From: an uncultured Candidatus Saccharibacteria bacterium
GTDB lineage: Bacteria; Patescibacteriota; Saccharimonadia; Saccharimonadales; UBA7683
Direction: 5' to 3'
Assembly: GCA_964541305.1 (NCBI GenBank)
Contig: CAZIPE010000006.1
Span: forward strand, 1,957-65,956
DNA: 64,000 nucleotides
Each line of letters begins with the position of its first letter. The first letter of the stretch is position 1. Below, in pieces: positions 31,866 through 39,177 of this stretch. The notes beneath the pieces were generated by a model that worked only from the letters and a program-made list of their open reading frames with translations, was not told the origin of the DNA and ran no database searches. Position numbers and translations under genes: made by a program.

Positions 31866-34715
31866 CTAGGACTTTTTTAACTTGATGGTCAGTGTAGACC
31901 CCTCAACGGTTGCCGTAGCTTTAAAACCATCTTTCACTTCCACAATATCTGTTGCAAGTGTTTCAGCTTTAATTGTTTTAGCATGTTCATCTATCGCCTT
32001 TTGAAGTTCATTGTCATCGGTTGAAAGTGATAGCGTAATTCGATCATCAACGTTCAAGCCACCTTCTTTTCGAGCACTCTGCACATTCCTCACCACTTCG
32101 CGCATCAAGCCCTCTCGCTTAAGTTCGGGGGTCATGTGAGTATCAAGCTCTACTGCTTCTGAGCCTGTCTTGACCTGCTTTACATTCAGCTCTTCCATAA
32201 CAACATCAACAAGATATTCAGGACATGCCGGAAGCGTGACACTCGCCAATGGTTGTCTCACTTTTATTTGGGCTTGAGCTCGTAAGCGCAGCCCTTCGGT
32301 GATAGAGCCTCTTACGCCGTCCATTTCTTCCCCTAGATCACTGTGAACAAGCGCATTCTTTGCCTCGGGGAAATCAAGCAGATGAACCGAGTCTTTTGAG
32401 CCAGTAAGTTGCTGATATATATCTTCGGCCATAAATGGCGTAAATGGGGCCATCAGCTTTGAAAGTTCAACTAACACATAGTAGAGAGTATGGTACGCCT
32501 CGTTTTTGTCTCTATCATTCTCACTCTTCCAAAAACGCTTTCGAGATCGTCGTACAAACCAATTACTTAAACCATCCACAAACTCCATAATGGGTCGCGA
32601 GGCATGCATTAAATTGTATTCTGACATATTTTTATCTACATCTTGGATGAGCTTTTGTAGTTTACTTAGAATCCATTTATCAAGAATATTGACTGGCTGA
32701 GGAGTTCCCTCAACTGCCTTCCAGTCATCAACATCGGCATACATCAAGAAGAAATCTAAAACATTGTAAATCATACTGAGTTTTCGCTCCACTCCAAGCA
32801 CGTCTTTGTCGCTCAAATTAATATCTTCGCCCAATACAACAGGAGAAGTGAGAAAGAAGTATCGAAATGCGTCAGCACTCGTTTTGTTCATGAGTTCCAG
32901 TGGATCAGTGTAATTCTTCAGTTTTTTGCTCATCTTTTTGCCATCTTCGGCATTGATGAATCCAGTGCAAATAAGATTTTTAAATGGCGAAACACCAAAC
33001 AATGCAACGTTTACTGCAGTGAGTGAGTAGAACCAGCCTCGTGTTTGATCAATTGCCTCGACAATGAAATCCGCCGGAAAACTCTGTTCAAACTTTTCTT
33101 TGTTCTCAAATGGATAGTGGAATTGCGCATAGGGCATTGAACCACTCTCAAACCAACAATCAAGCACCTTGCCGGTATGCTTCATCATCACTCCGTCACA
33201 CTCAAACTCAACATTCATGACATTTGGTAAGTGATAATCTTCGAGTGATTTACCCGTAAGTTCTTCAAATTCCTGGTACGAACCTATAACTTTTATTACT
33301 TCAGTACCGTCGTTTCGCTCGCCCTTCCAAACAGGTATCGGAGTTGCCCAATAACGATCTCTTGAAAGATTCCAATCTGGTGCGGATTCAATAATATTTG
33401 TGAATCTTCCGTCCCGCAGTTTTTGTGGTACCCAATTAGTATTACTATTGCTCTCGAGCATTTCTGTTTTTTGCCCCTGGATATCCATAAACCAACTTGG
33501 ATGTGCACGATACATGAGTTTTGATCCACATCGATGACAGTGTGGATAATCGTGCGTGATGTATTCAACCTTAAGAGCTTTTCCTTCTTCAACCAACGTC
33601 TTTGCAATTTCTTTATTCACATCCCAAATGTTCTGGCCGAGCCACCGACCCTCGGTGTAGTGACCGTTTTCATCAACGAGTGAAACAATTGGTACTCCCT
33701 CTTTTTTACAGAGCTCGTAATCTTCCTCACCATAAGCGGGCGCTTCATGCGCAATGCCCGTGCCATCTTCAGCAGTTATAAAATCCGCAGAAAGCACACG
33801 GTGAGCATCAGGTCCATGATTTTCAAACAGTGGATGGTAAGTTTTACCAACCAACTCACTACCCTTCACCTTTTTGATGACTTCGTAGTCGAGTGATTGG
33901 TGTTTTTCATCTGTAAAAACGCCTTCTACAGCATCCTTCGCAACATATACTTTTTTGTCATTGTAGTTAACTAGAACATAGTCAATTTTGGGGTTTATGG
34001 CTATTGCGACGTTAGCAGGCAATGTCCATGGAGTTGTTGTCCATGTCAGTAAATATTCGTCCGTTCCTTCAAGCTGGAAATACACGTACACGCTCGGGTC
34101 TGTATCTTGCTGATAGCTATTTTCCATCGCAACCTCTGATTTTGAAATTGGAGTGGCATCCTTGGTGCAATACACCAGTATTTTTTCACCCTCGTAGATC
34201 TTCCCTTTTTCGTAAAGTTCTTTAAATGCCCACCACACACTTTCCATATACTCAGGATCCATAGTTTTGTAGGCACCCTTAAATTCAACCCAGCGACCCA
34301 CCCGATCGATGGTATCTTCCCATTCCGTTCCGGTTTTTACCATTGCAGCACGACACGCATTTACGTAATCTTCGATACTAATTTTTGTGCCGATTTCTTT
34401 TTTATTTGCAATTCCGAGCTGTTTTTCAACAAACACCTCTGCTGGTAATCCGTGGCAGTCCCACCCCCAGCGACGTTCAACATGCTTGCCCTTCATAGTT
34501 TGATAACGAGCAACCGTATCTTTAACAGTCGAAATTAAGAGATGTCCGTGGTGCGGTGTACCAGTTAAAAACGGTGGCCCATCGTAAAATACAAAGCTAT
34601 TGTCACTCGGTCTTTCGTCGACAGATTTATAAAACGTCTTATCTTCATGCCAAAATTTCCCAACTCGTTGTTCAATCTCCGAATGCTTCTGCTTTTCTCG
34701 TGTTTTAAATTTCAT
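31866..34715 (-). CDS. ileS: isoleucyl-tRNA synthetase
   Basis: 949 aa with HIGH-type PHHGHLL, KMSKKLKN and a CP1 editing insertion. Confidence 0.96.
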   Translation of the reverse strand: MKFKTREKQKHSEIEQRVGKFWHEDKTFYKSVDERPSDNSFVFYDGPPFLTGTPHHGHLLISTVKDTVARYQTMKGKHVERRWGWDCHGLPAEVFVEKQLGIANKKEIGTKISIEDYVNACRAAMVKTGTEWEDTIDRVGRWVEFKGAYKTMDPEYMESVWWAFKELYEKGKIYEGEKILVYCTKDATPISKSEVAMENSYQQDTDPSVYVYFQLEGTDEYLLTWTTTPWTLPANVAIAINPKIDYVLVNYNDKKVYVAKDAVEGVFTDEKHQSLDYEVIKKVKGSELVGKTYHPLFENHGPDAHRVLSADFITAEDGTGIAHEAPAYGEEDYELCKKEGVPIVSLVDENGHYTEGRWLGQNIWDVNKEIAKTLVEEGKALKVEYITHDYPHCHRCGSKLMYRAHPSWFMDIQGQKTEMLESNSNTNWVPQKLRDGRFTNIIESAPDWNLSRDRYWATPIPVWKGERNDGTEVIKVIGSYQEFEELTGKSLEDYHLPNVMNVEFECDGVMMKHTGKVLDCWFESGSMPYAQFHYPFENKEKFEQSFPADFIVEAIDQTRGWFYSLTAVNVALFGVSPFKNLICTGFINAEDGKKMSKKLKNYTDPLELMNKTSADAFRYFFLTSPVVLGEDINLSDKDVLGVERKLSMIYNVLDFFLMYADVDDWKAVEGTPQPVNILDKWILSKLQKLIQDVDKNMSEYNLMHASRPIMEFVDGLSNWFVRRSRKRFWKSENDRDKNEAYHTLYYVLVELSKLMAPFTPFMAEDIYQQLTGSKDSVHLLDFPEAKNALVHSDLGEEMDGVRGSITEGLRLRAQAQIKVRQPLASVTLPACPEYLVDVVMEELNVKQVKTGSEAVELDTHMTPELKREGLMREVVRNVQSARKEGGLNVDDRITLSLSTDDNELQKAIDEHAKTIKAETLATDIVEVKDGFKATATVEGSTLTIKLKKS

Positions 34716-35277
34716 CTTTTGCCTCCACTGGCTTATGCATGTTTAAAATTGGCATCTTTCCATGGAATAACTCTTTATCCGTGTCGCCTCGAATGAATCC
34801 ATATTGCTCGTAAAATTTGATTGCTCTTTCATTATACGCGACAACTTGAAGATGCATCGGCAAACTACCGACAAAATCGAGTGCCTCATCCATAAGTTCG
34901 TGAGCAACTCCAGTTCCTTTTAAATTATCTGTGAGGTAAATTGCATCAATAGTTGCTTCACTATTCTGCTTCGTAACGTGCATGAAGCCTTGGATAACGC
35001 CTTCTTCGTCCTTTACTACTCGGTATTGGGTATTTGGGTCATTTTTTTCAATGAGCTTTCTACGAAACTCATTACCGTTATCACGGCCACTATCAGTCTG
35101 ACCATCTTTAACCAGAAAATTAAATTCAGTTCGAATCCAGTCTTCGGTTACACCGTACTCGTCATTAGGGTACGTTTGCAACCAAGATTTCAAGTGCGCC
35201 TCACCAATACCAACAGCATCATCAATTGTCGCAGACTCGATTTCGAACCGTTTGTCGTTAAATAGTACCTCAGTCAC
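34705..35277 (-). CDS. GNAT family N-acetyltransferase
   Basis: 190 aa with GTG start and an acetyl-CoA-binding-like segment (LKGTGVAHELMDEALDF). Its 3' end overlaps the ileS start by 11 nt. Confidence 0.7.
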   Translation of the reverse strand: MTEVLFNDKRFEIESATIDDAVGIGEAHLKSWLQTYPNDEYGVTEDWIRTEFNFLVKDGQTDSGRDNGNEFRRKLIEKNDPNTQYRVVKDEEGVIQGFMHVTKQNSEATIDAIYLTDNLKGTGVAHELMDEALDFVGSLPMHLQVVAYNERAIKFYEQYGFIRGDTDKELFHGKMPILNMHKPVEAKDEI

Positions 35278-35505
35278 TTTCTTCCTTTCTTAATAGAAAA
35301 ATCACTGCTTTTGACTGCCAGAATCCCAATTTGTTAGGATGGTACCATCTGGCTTCCAAAAGAAGTGATTCTTTTAGCGCTTACTTACTGCTATTACGGG
35401 CTTACCCGAGAGGTTCTACTGGGCAAATAGCTTTTCTTCCTCTTCCGCCGTCCTTCAAAGTTTCAACGAAGAATGGATCGTGGTTGATAGCCACTACGGA
35501 TTACG
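35278..35505 (-). promoter_or_regulatory. T-box-like tRNA(Ile)-sensing leader of the GNAT-ileS operon
   Basis: The minus-strand RNA has a hairpin GUGG-CUAUCAA-CCAC (35480-35494) with AUC followed by A in the loop. Downstream lies an antiterminator-type element: GCCAGA, a 7-nt bulge UGGUACC, AUCC, a loop, GGAU, UCUGGC (35317-35353). This sits on a 14-bp extension followed by a U-run. Confidence 0.55.
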
Positions 35506-35509
35506 TAAG

Positions 35510-35538
35510 ATTATACGCTAGTTGCCCGATAGTCACAA
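35510..35538 (-). promoter_or_regulatory. sigma70-type promoter of the T-box leader (TTGTGA-17-TATAAT)
   Basis: The minus strand reads TTGTGActatcgggcaactagcgTATAAT. Confidence 0.55.
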
Positions 35539-35811
35539 TTACTGGGTGTAAAAACTTAATTCTGAAATGGTTGGCCATTTGTCTATTTCTGACCACGCTT
35601 GCACAAATTCACCCGTATCTTCGCGGACTAAAATGGCAGGAAACTGTAAAATGTCATAAATTTGAGCCAATTCTACACCCTCTTTACTGTCAGCGTCCAT
35701 GAGCTCTAGTTGTTTACCGGTACGTTGTTCAAAATCTCTGAGATAACCCTGCAATTGAGTATCTGTCTCGGAGATCGGCTTATGGAGAATAATCGCTTTC
35801 ATACTACTCAT
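35539..35811 (-). CDS. hypothetical small protein, thioredoxin-fold-like without CxxC
   Basis: 90 aa. The fold guess rests only on the pattern (AIILHK...FPAILV). Confidence 0.4.
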   Translation of the reverse strand: MSSMKAIILHKPISETDTQLQGYLRDFEQRTGKQLELMDADSKEGVELAQIYDILQFPAILVREDTGEFVQAWSEIDKWPTISELSFYTQ

Positions 35812-35825
35812 GATTATATCAGATA

Positions 35826-36353
35826 CTAGTCAATCAATTCCTTGATTCTTTTTACGCTGTCAGTAATTTCTATATGTGAGGTATCAATTACTGACACTCC
35901 TCTGTTCTTCCAGCCGTCAAAAAGTCGGTGATTCTCCCTCACTATGCTTTCTTTAAGTTTTGATTGCTCATCACGCCCATTATTCCGTTCTACGGTAGTT
36001 TCCTCATCCGGCAATAAAACAACTAGTTTGTAGGGAAGATCTTTAAGATGTTTCTCCCATATTACAAATTCTTCTAGTGGACCATAGAAATCTACCACAC
36101 AGTTTATGCCCGCTTCGTGATATCTTTTTGCCATATCTACGCACAGCGGAATTGAGACATTCCACTGTCGTTGAGTTTCTTTATTCCAGTCCTTGCGATA
36201 GTCATCTGCTGAATGGTAACCAGTAACCACAAGTTGTCGTAAATCGTCCTGACTAAGATATGCCCAGACACCTGAAGCACTTTCGAGGAACTCTCGAATC
36301 GTCGTCGTCTTTCCAGCTCCAGAAGGACCAGTTATTAAAAGTATCGTGGACAT
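35826..36353 (-). CDS. P-loop NTPase/kinase-like protein (AAA_33/zeta-like)
   Basis: The start is set at MSTILLITGPSGAGKTTT. The longer track ORF overlaps the nrdJ 3' end. Confidence 0.6.
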   Translation of the reverse strand: MSTILLITGPSGAGKTTTIREFLESASGVWAYLSQDDLRQLVVTGYHSADDYRKDWNKETQRQWNVSIPLCVDMAKRYHEAGINCVVDFYGPLEEFVIWEKHLKDLPYKLVVLLPDEETTVERNNGRDEQSKLKESIVRENHRLFDGWKNRGVSVIDTSHIEITDSVKRIKELID

Positions 36354-36375
36354 ATCTTTTCCTAATAACTGAGAC

Positions 36376-39177
36376 TTAGCTACAGCCAGAGGTGGTACCA
36401 CAACTTGTACAGACGTAACAACTGCCCGCTCTTTGAGTTTGATTGCCACAACTGTAGCAAAGTGGTGCGGTCTCGCCTGTTCCCGGCAAACTGGTCACTT
36501 CAGATTTGGGTATCTCAAAGTGTGGCTCAGGTGCAACAACAGGCTCTAGGTGAACATCCATTGGTTGAGTAGGAATTGCATTTTCAATCTGGCCTTCAAG
36601 TAAATTTGCTTGATGCGAAAGCGCTTCGGCCTCTAGGTCGTCGAGACTCGCAAGACCAAGCTCAAGTTGATCATCTATGCTCAAATATTCTTTTGCTAGA
36701 CGCCTAAATATGTAGTCTACCAAGCTCGATGCTGTTTGAATTTCAGGATCATCCGTCATACCCGCTGGTGCGAAGGCAACATTAGTCATACCGCGGACAT
36801 ATGCCTTGAGTGGAACACCATACTGCAAGCCATAGCTAATTGATCGAGCATAGGCATCCATCAAACCAGCAAGCGTAGATCCCATCTTGGCAACGCTCAT
36901 GAAGAGCTCACCTGGGGTGCCATCTTCAAACTCACCAACCGTGAAGTAGCCGTGACAATCAGCAACACGGAAGCTAAATGTCCTTGCATTGCGAGAACGA
37001 GGCATTTTGCGTCGAACATGTGGTTGCATGGCAATAAGTTGTTGGGTTATCTTCTCGGGGGATTCCGCAACATGTGCTGAAAGTTCATCTTTCTTTTCTT
37101 CCTTGCTTGAGGAAAGTGGCTGAGCAACTTTTGAGCCGTCACGGTAAATTGCCACCGCTTTCAGACCCAACTTCCAGCTCTCCATGTGGAGCTCTTCAAT
37201 GTCCTCAGCCGTTGATTCAACCGGCATATTAACTGTCTTTGAAATCGCACCAGATATGAATGGCTGAACGGCACCCATCATCTTAACGTGACCCATGTAG
37301 TGAATTGAGTTTTCACCAACGGCACACGAAAATACACTGTAATCTTCTTTCTTAAGATGTGGTGCGTTAATCACATTGCCCTTTTCGTGAATAAAGGCAA
37401 CGATGTCTTTTATCTCGTTTTCTGAATAACCCATGGTGCGAAGGGCACGAGGAATAGTCTGATTGACGATAATCATATTTCCGCCACCAACAAGTTTCTT
37501 AAACTTAGTGAGCGAGAAATCTGGTTCAACACCGGTAGTATCACAATCCATCATGAAACCAATCGTACCGGTTGGTGCAAGTACACTAGCCTGGGAATTA
37601 CGCACTCCATAGCGCTCGCCTAACTCTACTGCGTCATCCCACACCTCGGCTGCCGCACTGAGCAGATCTTCGGCTACAAGAGCTGGGTTGATTTCACGTA
37701 CTGCGTCACGGTGTTGTTTGAGCACCTTAATCATTCCTTCGCGGTCTTTGTGGAATCCAGCAAATGGACCAACTTGCTTTGCAAGTTTTGCACTCGTTGC
37801 ATAGGCGTGACCGGTCATGACTGCAGTGATAGCAGCAGCTTGAGCCCGACCTTCATCACTATCATATGCCAGACCCTGCGCCATTAGCATTGCACCGAGG
37901 TTTGCGTAACCGAGCCCAAGTTCGCGATAAGCACGCGCTGTTTTGCCAATACTTTCTGTTGGATATTCAGAGTAGCCAACGAGGATTTCTTGAGCAGTAA
38001 ATATAACCTCTACGGTTTGCTTAAACGCCTCAACATCGAATGTGCCATCTTCGTTTAAGTACTTTAGCAAGTTGATTGATGCAAGATTACAGGCTGAATT
38101 ATCAAGATGCATATACTCTGAACAAGGGTTCGAGGCGTTGATGCGCCCTGCGTTTGGTGTGGTGTGCCAGTTGTTGGCCGTTGTATCAAATTGCAAACCA
38201 GGGTCTGCACACTCCCAGGCGCTCTCAGCAATTTGGCGCCATAAGTCGCGGGCTTTCATGGTTTTATACACCTTTTGGTCTTTTACGCCAACCAGGTTCC
38301 AGTCTTGGTCGTTTTCAACTGCCTGCATGAAATCATCAGTCACCCGAACTGAGTTATTAGCATTCTGATACTGCACACTAAAGATGTCTTTTCCATCAAG
38401 GTCCATATCAAAACCAGCCTCTTGAAGAACCCGTGCTTTGCGTTCTTCAATTGCTTTGCACCAGATGAATTCTTCAATATCAGGATGTGATACGTTCAAA
38501 ATAACCATCTTTGCGGCACGGCGTGTCTTACCACCGCTCTTAATGGCGCCAGCGCTTGAATCAGCTCCACGCATAAATGAAAGTGGGCCTGAAGCTGTAC
38601 CAGCACTTTTACCGAGCGGTTCGTAGCTTGAACGAATAGTACTCAGGTTGAGGCCAGAGCCTGAGCCTCCCTTAAAAATCATTCCTTCTTCTTTATACCA
38701 ATTAAGAATTGAGGGCATGGTGTCATCAACAGCTAAAATAAAGCAGGCGCTCGCTTGCTGGGCACGTGAGGCGGCACCAATATTAAACCAGACCGGTGAA
38801 TTAAAGGCGGCCCGTTGTGAAGCCAAAATGTATTTGAGCTCCGCATTAAATGTTTTAGCTTGTTCGGCGCTTACAAAGTAATCTTCCTGTTCACCATGTT
38901 TGGTGATAGTATCAGCTACTCGATCGATGAGTGTTTTTAAGCTCGCTTCTCTGGCTTCTGTTCCTGGTGTCCCACAAAAGTATTTCTGACTAACAATATT
39001 GATGGCATTAAGACTCCAGGTATCTGGAAACTCAACGGCTTTTTGTTCAAACGCAACCTTACCCGTTAACGGGTTATCGATCTTAGAATCTCTCTCAACC
39101 CACGTGAACATATCATACGGATGTGTTCCTTTTTTTGTGAAATAACGCTCCAATTGGAGCGCAGTTGCTTGCGCCAT
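36376..39177 (-). CDS. nrdJ: adenosylcobalamin-dependent (class II) ribonucleotide reductase
   Basis: 933 aa with active-site NPCSEY, a single-chain architecture, and a C-terminal Cys-rich tail (CYSCGNQTQRAGSCYVCTSCGTTSGCS). Confidence 0.9.
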   Translation of the reverse strand: MAQATALQLERYFTKKGTHPYDMFTWVERDSKIDNPLTGKVAFEQKAVEFPDTWSLNAINIVSQKYFCGTPGTEAREASLKTLIDRVADTITKHGEQEDYFVSAEQAKTFNAELKYILASQRAAFNSPVWFNIGAASRAQQASACFILAVDDTMPSILNWYKEEGMIFKGGSGSGLNLSTIRSSYEPLGKSAGTASGPLSFMRGADSSAGAIKSGGKTRRAAKMVILNVSHPDIEEFIWCKAIEERKARVLQEAGFDMDLDGKDIFSVQYQNANNSVRVTDDFMQAVENDQDWNLVGVKDQKVYKTMKARDLWRQIAESAWECADPGLQFDTTANNWHTTPNAGRINASNPCSEYMHLDNSACNLASINLLKYLNEDGTFDVEAFKQTVEVIFTAQEILVGYSEYPTESIGKTARAYRELGLGYANLGAMLMAQGLAYDSDEGRAQAAAITAVMTGHAYATSAKLAKQVGPFAGFHKDREGMIKVLKQHRDAVREINPALVAEDLLSAAAEVWDDAVELGERYGVRNSQASVLAPTGTIGFMMDCDTTGVEPDFSLTKFKKLVGGGNMIIVNQTIPRALRTMGYSENEIKDIVAFIHEKGNVINAPHLKKEDYSVFSCAVGENSIHYMGHVKMMGAVQPFISGAISKTVNMPVESTAEDIEELHMESWKLGLKAVAIYRDGSKVAQPLSSSKEEKKDELSAHVAESPEKITQQLIAMQPHVRRKMPRSRNARTFSFRVADCHGYFTVGEFEDGTPGELFMSVAKMGSTLAGLMDAYARSISYGLQYGVPLKAYVRGMTNVAFAPAGMTDDPEIQTASSLVDYIFRRLAKEYLSIDDQLELGLASLDDLEAEALSHQANLLEGQIENAIPTQPMDVHLEPVVAPEPHFEIPKSEVTSLPGTGETAPLCYSCGNQTQRAGSCYVCTSCGTTSGCS

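Follow-up and report, generated by a model that had tools for sequence, protein, structure and literature searches.

A T-box-type tRNA-Ile leader conserved upstream of ileS in Saccharibacteria, with a predicted terminator enclosing the tRNA-end-binding domain

In the genome of an uncultured Candidatus Saccharibacteria bacterium (assembly GCA_964541305.1, contig CAZIPE010000006.1), a stretch of 64 000 nt, hereafter the window and numbered from its first letter, carries on its minus strand a leader in front of a GNAT acetyltransferase gene and the isoleucyl-tRNA synthetase gene ileS. The locus raises the question of whether this leader senses tRNA-Ile and, if so, by which route it acts on the genes behind it. 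An initial annotation, made from the letters alone, had described the leader as a T-box of the short-Stem-I kind known from ileS, and this identification was borne out by a nearly invariant Ile specifier, a nearly invariant tRNA-end-binding bulge and covarying stems; all the sequence features it listed were found in place on the minus strand. In all likelihood the leader would function as a tRNA-Ile-specific T-box riboswitch that controls transcriptional read-through into GNAT-ileS, with a predicted terminator competing with Stem III.

A scan of reference genomes with the isoleucyl-tRNA synthetase (IleRS) protein resulted in 80 ileS loci (L001-L080) of 56-79% identity, nearly all titled Saccharibacteria or Saccharimonadales, and a few generic or otherwise labelled. 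With the leader as blastn query, its 3′ half was matched at 70-85% identity in about 45 of the 80 loci, and an 18-nt block representing the specifier hairpin, AGTGGCTATCAACCACGA, was matched perfectly in at least 10. A regular-expression census identified a 4-bp hairpin with NN-AUC-NN, followed by UGGNACC 105-170 nt downstream, in about 67 loci, with the compensatory Stem I variants GUGG/CCAC, GCGG/CCGC, GUAG/CUAC, GCAG/CUGC, GUGA/UCAC and AUGG/CCAU. From an unguided MAFFT alignment of 57 leaders, RNAalifold, likewise unguided, recovered Stem I, Stem II (5+3 bp), Stem IIA and the helices A1 and A2, and double-sided changes were present at 24 of its 27 pairs. When the long-range helix was added, 88.3% of the cells in this alignment were paired, compared with 67.5% for shuffled columns (0 of 500 shuffles reached the observed value) and only 35-46% for slid partners, and the covariation score was 0.58 against 0.08-0.15 for slid partners.

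A covariance model (R1) built from the trimmed alignment matched the window once, at the leader, with nothing else in the 64 kb, and returned exactly one copy in 74 of the 80 loci (46-164 bits), 20 of these copies being outside the seed. Every one of the 74 was located upstream of ileS on the same strand. One further locus was truncated, and five were still empty with the filters of the covariance model off, so that the leader was present in 74 of 79 informative ileS loci. In the alignment of the 74 members, 93.6% of cells were paired and compensatory changes were found at 37 of 40 pairs. This conservation goes far beyond chance, the leader being kept as one copy in cis with ileS across Saccharibacteria.

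The individual elements (Table 1) supported this assignment from the 5′ end onwards. The specifier AUC (Ile), placed in the Stem I loop ahead of ileS, fits the regulated gene; of 72 full-length copies, 71 had this specifier, the next base was A in 68, and Stem I itself was paired in 100% of cells, with compensatory changes at all four pairs. Three elements were found beyond those of the initial annotation, i.e. a basal helix (P0) with a K-turn-like loop, an S-turn in Stem II, and a Stem IIA/B pseudoknot with an F-box. Pair variants of P0 in the relatives, recognised by eye, included UGC/GCA, UAC/GUA, GACA/UGUC, GGAC/GUCC, CCGU/ACGG and CUCGC/GCGAG, and between P0 and the specifier stem most copies, again by eye, had a 5′-UGA / 3′-GAA loop reminiscent of the Stem I K-turn. 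An inserted hairpin 3′ of Stem I was seen in the window and in some of the relatives (L025, L017, L043 and others), and in most relatives an extra hairpin was placed 5′ of Stem I instead.

In Stem II, the strands AAGAA[A/C] and AGUAGAA were conserved, with two covarying helices on either side, and an S-turn (GAA opposite GUAGA, with a string of five purines) is on these grounds judged to be present. The pairs of Stem IIA were 96-99% paired, and the F-box of the family read CGU[A/U/C]A. Complementarity between the Stem IIA loop and the Stem IIB linker averaged 3.40 for matched and 2.44 for mismatched combinations, with the matched value reached by 0 of 5000 permutations, and the covarying pseudoknot partners included UACGA/UCGUA, GACAG/CUGUC and AGUGA/UCACU.

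The 3′ part of the leader comprised the discriminator, which binds the tRNA end in known T-boxes. The Stem-III-like hairpin pointed out in the initial annotation was confirmed, and it carried on its flanks the two parts of the purine string defined as 5′-RRRxG-Stem III-AA-3′ (PMC7583486). AAG was found in 53 of 55 copies, strict RRRxG in 47 of 55, and AA after Stem III in 48 of 55. Stem III was paired in about 90% of cells, with compensatory changes at 7/7 core pairs. Helix A1 was 97-100% and A2 about 90% paired, both with many compensatory changes, and the minimum free energy (MFE) fold of the leader reproduced the A1/bulge/A2 geometry as a long bulged hairpin. Helix A2 had been described as only 4 bp (AUCC/GGAU), and is actually one of 7 bp (AUCCUAA/UUGGGAU). 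The bulge between the two helices was UGGNACC in 72 of 74 copies, distributed as UGGUACC in 60, UGGAACC in 8, UGGCACC in 3 and UGGGACC in 1.

The mode of switching was approached by MFE folding of the discriminator regions of 70 leaders with and without their 3′ tails. In the absence of the tail, the fold consisted of Stem III, AA and A1/bulge/A2, in this order. When the tail was present, Stem III gave up its loop and 3′ half to pairing with a segment 2-3 nt downstream of A1, which resulted in an enclosing helix of 8-14 bp abutting a run of 4-7 U. This helix (at least 6 bp in the MFE fold) was obtained in about 62 of the 70 leaders, a U-run was located behind it in 68, at least 3 nt were common to Stem III and the terminator in 58 (median 8), and A1/A2 were kept in the OFF fold of 69. 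The mean ΔΔG from ON to OFF was -7.9 kcal/mol; for the window, the energy changed from -22.1 (ON) to -30.2 (OFF) kcal/mol, its terminator comprising 12 bp and having 8 nt in common with Stem III. The pairs of the enclosing helix all covaried, and in an alignment-free comparison the terminator duplex reached -14.4 kcal/mol for matched strands, against -7.5 for partners from other genomes and -5.5 kcal/mol for shuffled tails (0 of 2000 permutations reached the matched value).

Since the 3′ half and loop of Stem III are used by the terminator, Stem III (ON) and the enclosing helix (OFF) are mutually exclusive, and selection acting on each of two exclusive helices is the signature of a riboswitch expression platform. 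Exchange between Stem III and the terminator is thus supported by predicted folds and covariation. In this respect the initial annotation has to be revised, as it had taken a textbook antiterminator for the alternative of the terminator; the A1/bulge/A2 domain sits inside the predicted terminator, and it is Stem III that would be exchanged. The canonical topology, in which the 5′ strand of the terminator is the 3′ strand of A1, was found only in three relatives (L026:2800-2975, L031:2807-2990 and L032:2735-2905); in L031 this terminator was UCCUGCGAC-AUAUAC-GUCGUAGGA followed by U7. The canonical terminators of these three indicate a platform under selection to destroy the discriminator by one or the other route.

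One relative differed from both arrangements: L053:2813-3005 contained a complete T-box with the bulge UGGGACC, and neither terminator nor U-run. Its equivalent enclosing pairing, UCUGG/CCAGG, would overlap the Shine-Dalgarno (SD) sequence (CCAGGAG), and the copy may be a translational variant.

Judging from homologous ileS T-boxes of solved structure, the anticodon of tRNA-Ile(GAU) would pair with AUC in the 7-nt Stem I loop, and the 3′-NCCA end of uncharged tRNA would pair with UGGU of the bulge. Uncharged tRNA-Ile is proposed to lock Stem III and the purine string onto the bulge-NCCA duplex, whereby invasion by the tail would be blocked, and with Stem III docked, RNA polymerase would read through into ileS. 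With charged tRNA, or without tRNA, Stem III would be undocked, the terminator, more stable by approximately 8 kcal/mol, would form, and transcription would stop. For the docking logic, which we infer, the basis besides homology is the single-molecule response of the ileS T-box from Mycobacterium tuberculosis, where undocking of the linker and displacement of Stem III, both caused by charged tRNA, precede the OFF fold (PMC12647780).

Several observations weigh against this interpretation. RF00230, the Rfam T-box model, did not match the window copy, either at the gathering threshold or at E ≤10, and its gathering score (93 bits) was not reached by any copy among the window and 16 relatives. 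The conserved 14-nt T-box sequence AGGGUGGNACCGCG, as defined in PMC11297988, was not matched, as the window has CCAGAUGGUACCAUCC, in which only the UGGNACC core is kept. The top pair of A1 was A-U in 74 of 74 copies and never G-C. The closing pair of A2 in the window is A-U and not the G-U pair that acts as steric sensor of the 3′-aminoacyl group; among the 74 copies GU was the commonest closing pair (28), followed by UA (19), GC (14), AU (7) and CG (3), and it was unconserved. The variable base of the bulge was other than U in 12 of 74 copies. In the window itself, the K-turn-like loop has UA in place of GA, and the pseudoknot comprises 2 bp at most (GC/GC). Moreover, about seven relatives (L027, L028, L062, L064, L069 and L077 among them) lacked Stem III and yet had the enclosing helix, the 5′ strand of the terminator being located directly between RAG and AA, which implies that competition with Stem III is not the whole story.

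The copies with a non-U bulge base were L002, L003, L004, L014, L043, L063, L066 and L078 (UGGA), L010, L070 and L073 (UGGC), and L053 (UGGG). This set includes the closest relatives of the window, and with the usual A73 in tRNA-Ile, mispairing would be expected. Among complete genomes, the bulge has UGGA in CP011211.1, UGGC in OY970356.1 and UGGU in CP025011.1 and OZ246417.1. Neither the window nor L001-L060, the 60 related loci that were scanned, contained a tRNA-Ile gene, and ARAGORN identified no tRNA gene of any kind in the 64 kb of the window.

Far below its gathering score, RF00230 did recognise the family. Matches of 26.6-38.8 bits (E 4e-5 to 0.025) were obtained in 6 of 9 relatives tested, i.e. 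L035 (26.6 bits, E 2e-4) and L037, L029, L013, L012 and L044 (28-39 bits, with E values of 4e-5 to 0.025 when 60 kb was searched), and L031, L001 and L023 gave no match at the E-value threshold. About 72 Stem I positions of the model were dropped in these alignments, and in L035 the S-turn, Stem IIA with F-box, Stem III, AA and T-box core were assigned as here. Significant sub-threshold matches together with the shared assignment of elements indicate a genuine but divergent T-box. The initial annotation had reserved its doubt for a lack of a significant covariance-model hit combined with a lack of conservation of the UGGUACC bulge and AUC loop; the window was without an RF00230 match, and bulge and loop were clearly conserved, so that the two did not coincide.

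Translational control had been put forward in the initial annotation, whereby the pyrimidine-rich 5′ arm CACUUCUUU would pair with the SD/GUG region and tRNA would free the ribosome-binding site. In the window this pairing is possible at -7.6 kcal/mol, against a competing terminator pairing which is about twice as stable and which covaries. Arm and SD showed no covariation, the energies being -5.28 kcal/mol for matched and -5.26 for mismatched combinations, and 2291 of 5000 permutations were as low. Although the known short-Stem-I ileS T-boxes are translational (PMC7583486), and L053 lacks a terminator and would have its enclosing pairing overlap the SD, the U-run behind the helix in 68 of 70 leaders points to an intrinsic terminator instead, and control at the level of translation is considered very improbable. 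As a further reading, the leader might not sense tRNA at all, and might instead be a conserved structured leader bound by a protein, e.g. in autoregulation by IleRS through a tRNA mimic, or a small RNA that stands alone and has its own terminator. Having a promoter and a terminator to itself, it would accumulate as a species of ~200 nt, and RF00230 failed on the window copy. Such a reading is extremely unlikely, given at least six independent T-box-specific motifs together in the right order and spacing, RF00230 matches in relatives at E down to 4e-5, and a position in cis to ileS in 74 of 74 copies. Mimicry of tRNA for IleRS was rejected, since the loop carries the codon AUC and not the anticodon GAU, and complements tRNA-Ile rather than mimicking it.

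A T-box with terminator could also switch by other means than competition with Stem III, if tRNA bound to the bulge kept the lower helix from closing, by steric or kinetic hindrance, or if A1 also melted in the OFF state. The approximately seven relatives that have the enclosing helix without Stem III would agree with this, as would tertiary or kinetic effects beyond what MFE folds show. However, even in those relatives, with the terminator strand between RAG and AA, the purine string would face competition for its docking. Reuse of Stem III nucleotides by the terminator in 58 of 70 leaders, covariation in both competing helices, and undocking of Stem III and linker as the measured response to charged tRNA in M. 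tuberculosis (PMC12647780) likewise argue for the exchange of Stem III, and a different switch is regarded as unlikely.

Compared with known systems, as far as published descriptions allow, the leader most resembled the actinobacterial ileS T-boxes whose Stem I is short or ultrashort (M. tuberculosis, M. smegmatis and N. farcinica; "class II" of TBDB). Shared features are the gene, ileS, AUC followed by A, a short Stem I near the 5′ end without the distal platform for the tRNA elbow, the Stem II S-turn GAA/GUAGA (in N. farcinica G37-A39 and G67-A71; PMC7583486), the Stem IIA/B pseudoknot with the F-box CGUNA (CGUCA in M. tuberculosis; PMC11297988), the purine string RAG/RRRxG-Stem III-AA, and A1, the 7-nt UGGNACC bulge and A2. 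Whereas the actinobacterial leaders act on translation by sequestering the SD, those of Saccharibacteria have a predicted intrinsic terminator and would act on transcription, and their OFF helix draws on the tail and on Stem III (loop and 3′ half), not on the 3′ strands of A1/A2. In addition, the actinobacterial sequence AGGG-UGGNACC-GCG is replaced by ...GA-UGGNACC-, the top pair of A1 being invariably A-U, an extra hairpin is present at the junction at the base of Stem I, and the host phylum is Saccharibacteria.

With the class I leaders of RF00230 (Firmicutes; tyrS and glyQS of B. subtilis), the Saccharibacteria leaders have in common the specifier codon, a terminator with U-run, Stem III and an antiterminator discriminator, and the proposed UGGN-NCCA pairing and tRNA-dependent antitermination, and the alignments of the model with relatives spanned Stem II to A1 (26-39 bits). 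Unlike class I, they are without the long Stem I, and thereby without the specifier internal loop, the AG bulge and the distal T-loop platform. Canonically, the terminator takes its 5′ strand from the 3′ side of A1/A2, so that the OFF state no longer contains the bulge domain (PMC7583486), whereas here A1/bulge/A2 survives inside the predicted terminator in 69 of 70 leaders, with the canonical arrangement in L026, L031 and L032 only.

Table 1. Features of the leader and the genes behind it, with positions in the window (ON and OFF states as predicted).
Feature	Position	Strand	Remarks
Promoter TTGTGA-17-TATAAT	35510-35538	minus	sigma-70-like; consensus scan, 10/12 matches
Basal helix P0, 5′ strand CCG	35497-35499	minus	partner CGG at about 35445-35450
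Ultrashort Stem I GUGG-CUAUCAA-CCAC	35480-35494	minus	4-bp stem, 7-nt loop
Specifier AUC (Ile)	35486-35488	minus	next base A at 35485
Inserted hairpin UCCAUUCUUCG...GAAGGA	35451-35477	minus	between Stem I and 3′ strand of P0; lineage-specific
Stem II, lower helix AGAGG/CCUCU	35409-35443	minus	all 5+3 pairs covary
S-turn strands AAGAAA and AGUAGAA	35433-35438 and 35414-35420	minus	within Stem II
Stem IIA hairpin CGG-GUAAGC-CCG, F-box CGUAA and Stem IIB linker	35390-35408	minus	F-box at 35394-35398
RRRxG purine string AAGCG	35378-35382	minus	immediately 5′ of Stem III
Stem III CUAAAAGAA-UCAC-UUCUUUUGG	35356-35377	minus	ON-state helix
AA linker after Stem III	35354-35355	minus	in 62/74 copies
Helix A1 GCCAGA/UCUGGC	35348-35353 with 35317-35322	minus	
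7-nt bulge UGGUACC	35341-35347	minus	between A1 and A2
Helix A2 AUCCUAA-CAAA-UUGGGAU	35323-35340	minus	7 bp
Intrinsic terminator	35297-35370	minus	OFF state; wraps around intact A1/bulge/A2
Terminator 5′ strand AAUCACUUCUUUUG	35357-35370	minus	loop and 3′ half of Stem III
Terminator 3′ strand CAAAAGCAGUGAUU	35300-35313	minus	
U-run UUUUU	35297-35301	minus	end of terminator
SD AAGGAAG of GNAT gene	35281-35287	minus	
GNAT acetyltransferase gene	34705-35277	minus	190 aa; GUG start at 35277; Pfam Acetyltransf_1, E 1.9e-10
ileS, type 2 isoleucyl-tRNA synthetase	31866-34715	minus	class I, 949 aa; Pfam tRNA-synt_1, Anticodon_1, DUF5915

Transcription of the leader probably starts near 35503, which would give an RNA of roughly 205 nt extending to 35297 on the minus strand. 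Promoter-like sites (at least 9/12 matches) were found upstream of 38 of 73 leaders, as against 8 of 70 control windows. In the relatives these sites were usually ~30 nt ahead of Stem I, compared with 15 nt in the window, which is consistent with the extra 5′ hairpin of most relatives.

The first gene behind the leader in the window genome encodes the GNAT protein. The initial annotation had treated GNAT and ileS as the regulated unit: their open reading frames (ORFs) do overlap by 11 nt, but GNAT was not conserved, and in 52 of 74 loci ileS came straight after the leader, with the U-run stopping 15-103 nt before its start. One or two unrelated genes were located between leader and ileS in the other 22. 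By this gene order, ileS appears as the conserved regulated gene and GNAT as a lineage-specific passenger, and the short spacer between terminator and ileS appears to be a hot spot of insertion, the passengers all being placed under the putative tRNA-Ile switch. The IleRS of the window scored ~690 bits against IleRS2 and cytoplasmic IleRS structures and ~350 bits against type 1, and this type 2 ("eukaryote-like") enzyme ends in a C-terminal DUF5915 domain; the IleRS of Actinobacteria is also of type 2.

Insertions were found at L003, L008, L012, L014, L016, L021, L022, L024, L025, L030, L033, L046, L052, L054-L058, L061, L067, L076 and L078. The inserted genes encode GNAT, GDSL lipase, HAD and inositol phosphatases, InPase-like proteins and T5orf172, an EcoRI-type methylase with GmrSD/HNH, FMN reductase and RibD_C, as well as methyladenine glycosylase, a CdiA_C toxin domain and a PemK-GNAT fusion.

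Upstream of the leader, a small ORF without Pfam match (35539-35811, minus strand) extends as far as the -35 box of the leader promoter. In T-box-less loci (L047:2721-2990 and L079:201-467), ileS is directly preceded by a comparable small ORF with the end ...LPLMDEVAGY..., so that synteny is preserved with or without the leader. Two other T-box-less loci (L020:2880-3000 and L039:1490-1607) shared, upstream of ileS, a different conserved element of ~100 nt, with the hairpin GGAAUCGAUGC...GCAUCGAUUC in one and GGAACCGG...CCGGUUC in the other, followed by CACU...UAUUAUAGCA; this may represent either a promoter region or a regulatory element in place of the T-box. The next upstream neighbours in the window, on the minus strand, were a P-loop kinase-like protein (AAA_33/CPT; 35826-36449) and a class II (B12-dependent) ribonucleotide reductase with a TSCPD domain (36376-39177), and the ~74-nt overlap of these ORFs as listed is probably due to the choice of start codon. 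The sequence TGGTACC, which contains GGTACC, occurred 9 times in the 64 kb, where about 4 occurrences are expected.

At the gathering threshold, Rfam returned nothing anywhere in the window. The remark of the initial annotation that it was not aware of characterised T-boxes in the Candidate Phyla Radiation (CPR) agreed with the literature, as no paper on T-boxes in CPR or Saccharibacteria was found; full-text searches gave no paper joining T-box with Saccharibacteria, Patescibacteria or TM7, and no description of native riboswitches in CPR was found. For unusual T-box terminators involving Stem III, nothing comparable was seen by title or abstract, a route by which absence is unprovable. The T-box principle itself is known; new here are an ileS T-box in Saccharibacteria, with short Stem I and transcriptional, and a predicted terminator that would in most members compete with Stem III instead of helix A1. 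Actinobacteria are the hosts of cultivated Saccharibacteria. In TBDB, the short-Stem-I model was run only on Actinobacteria and on sequences already found by RF00230 (PMC7778990), a procedure by which the leaders of Saccharibacteria would be missed. We lean, with some reserve, towards a phylum-wide and unannotated lineage of ileS T-boxes with a rewired platform, in which Stem III is captured by a terminator that surrounds the domain for binding the tRNA 3′ end and leaves it intact, rather than opening helix A1.

The leader extends the T-box mechanism to the CPR, where almost nothing is known about gene regulation. As epibionts with reduced genomes rely on their hosts for amino acids, a sensor of charging on the only IleRS gene would be physiologically meaningful. 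It also exposes a blind spot of annotation, in that the Rfam gathering score misses every copy tested and such elements are systematically left unannotated. The variable cargo behind the leader, i.e. GNAT, lipases, restriction-modification genes and toxins, suggests that unrelated genes are brought under amino-acid control.

The enclosing terminator in turn represents a natural experiment on the discriminator, as the helices that bind the tRNA end would stay folded and only Stem III and the purine linker would be exchanged. This design fits the single-molecule evidence of Stem III undocking and may offer a simpler system for studying that step, and the two terminator topologies within one family point to expression platforms evolving around a fixed sensor. 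If the proposed mechanism is true, this would be a T-box in which docking of Stem III, recently recognised as the charge-sensitive step, is the direct and sole read-out, and it would be the first native ligand-responsive RNA switch defined for the CPR and a ready-made part for genetic tools there.

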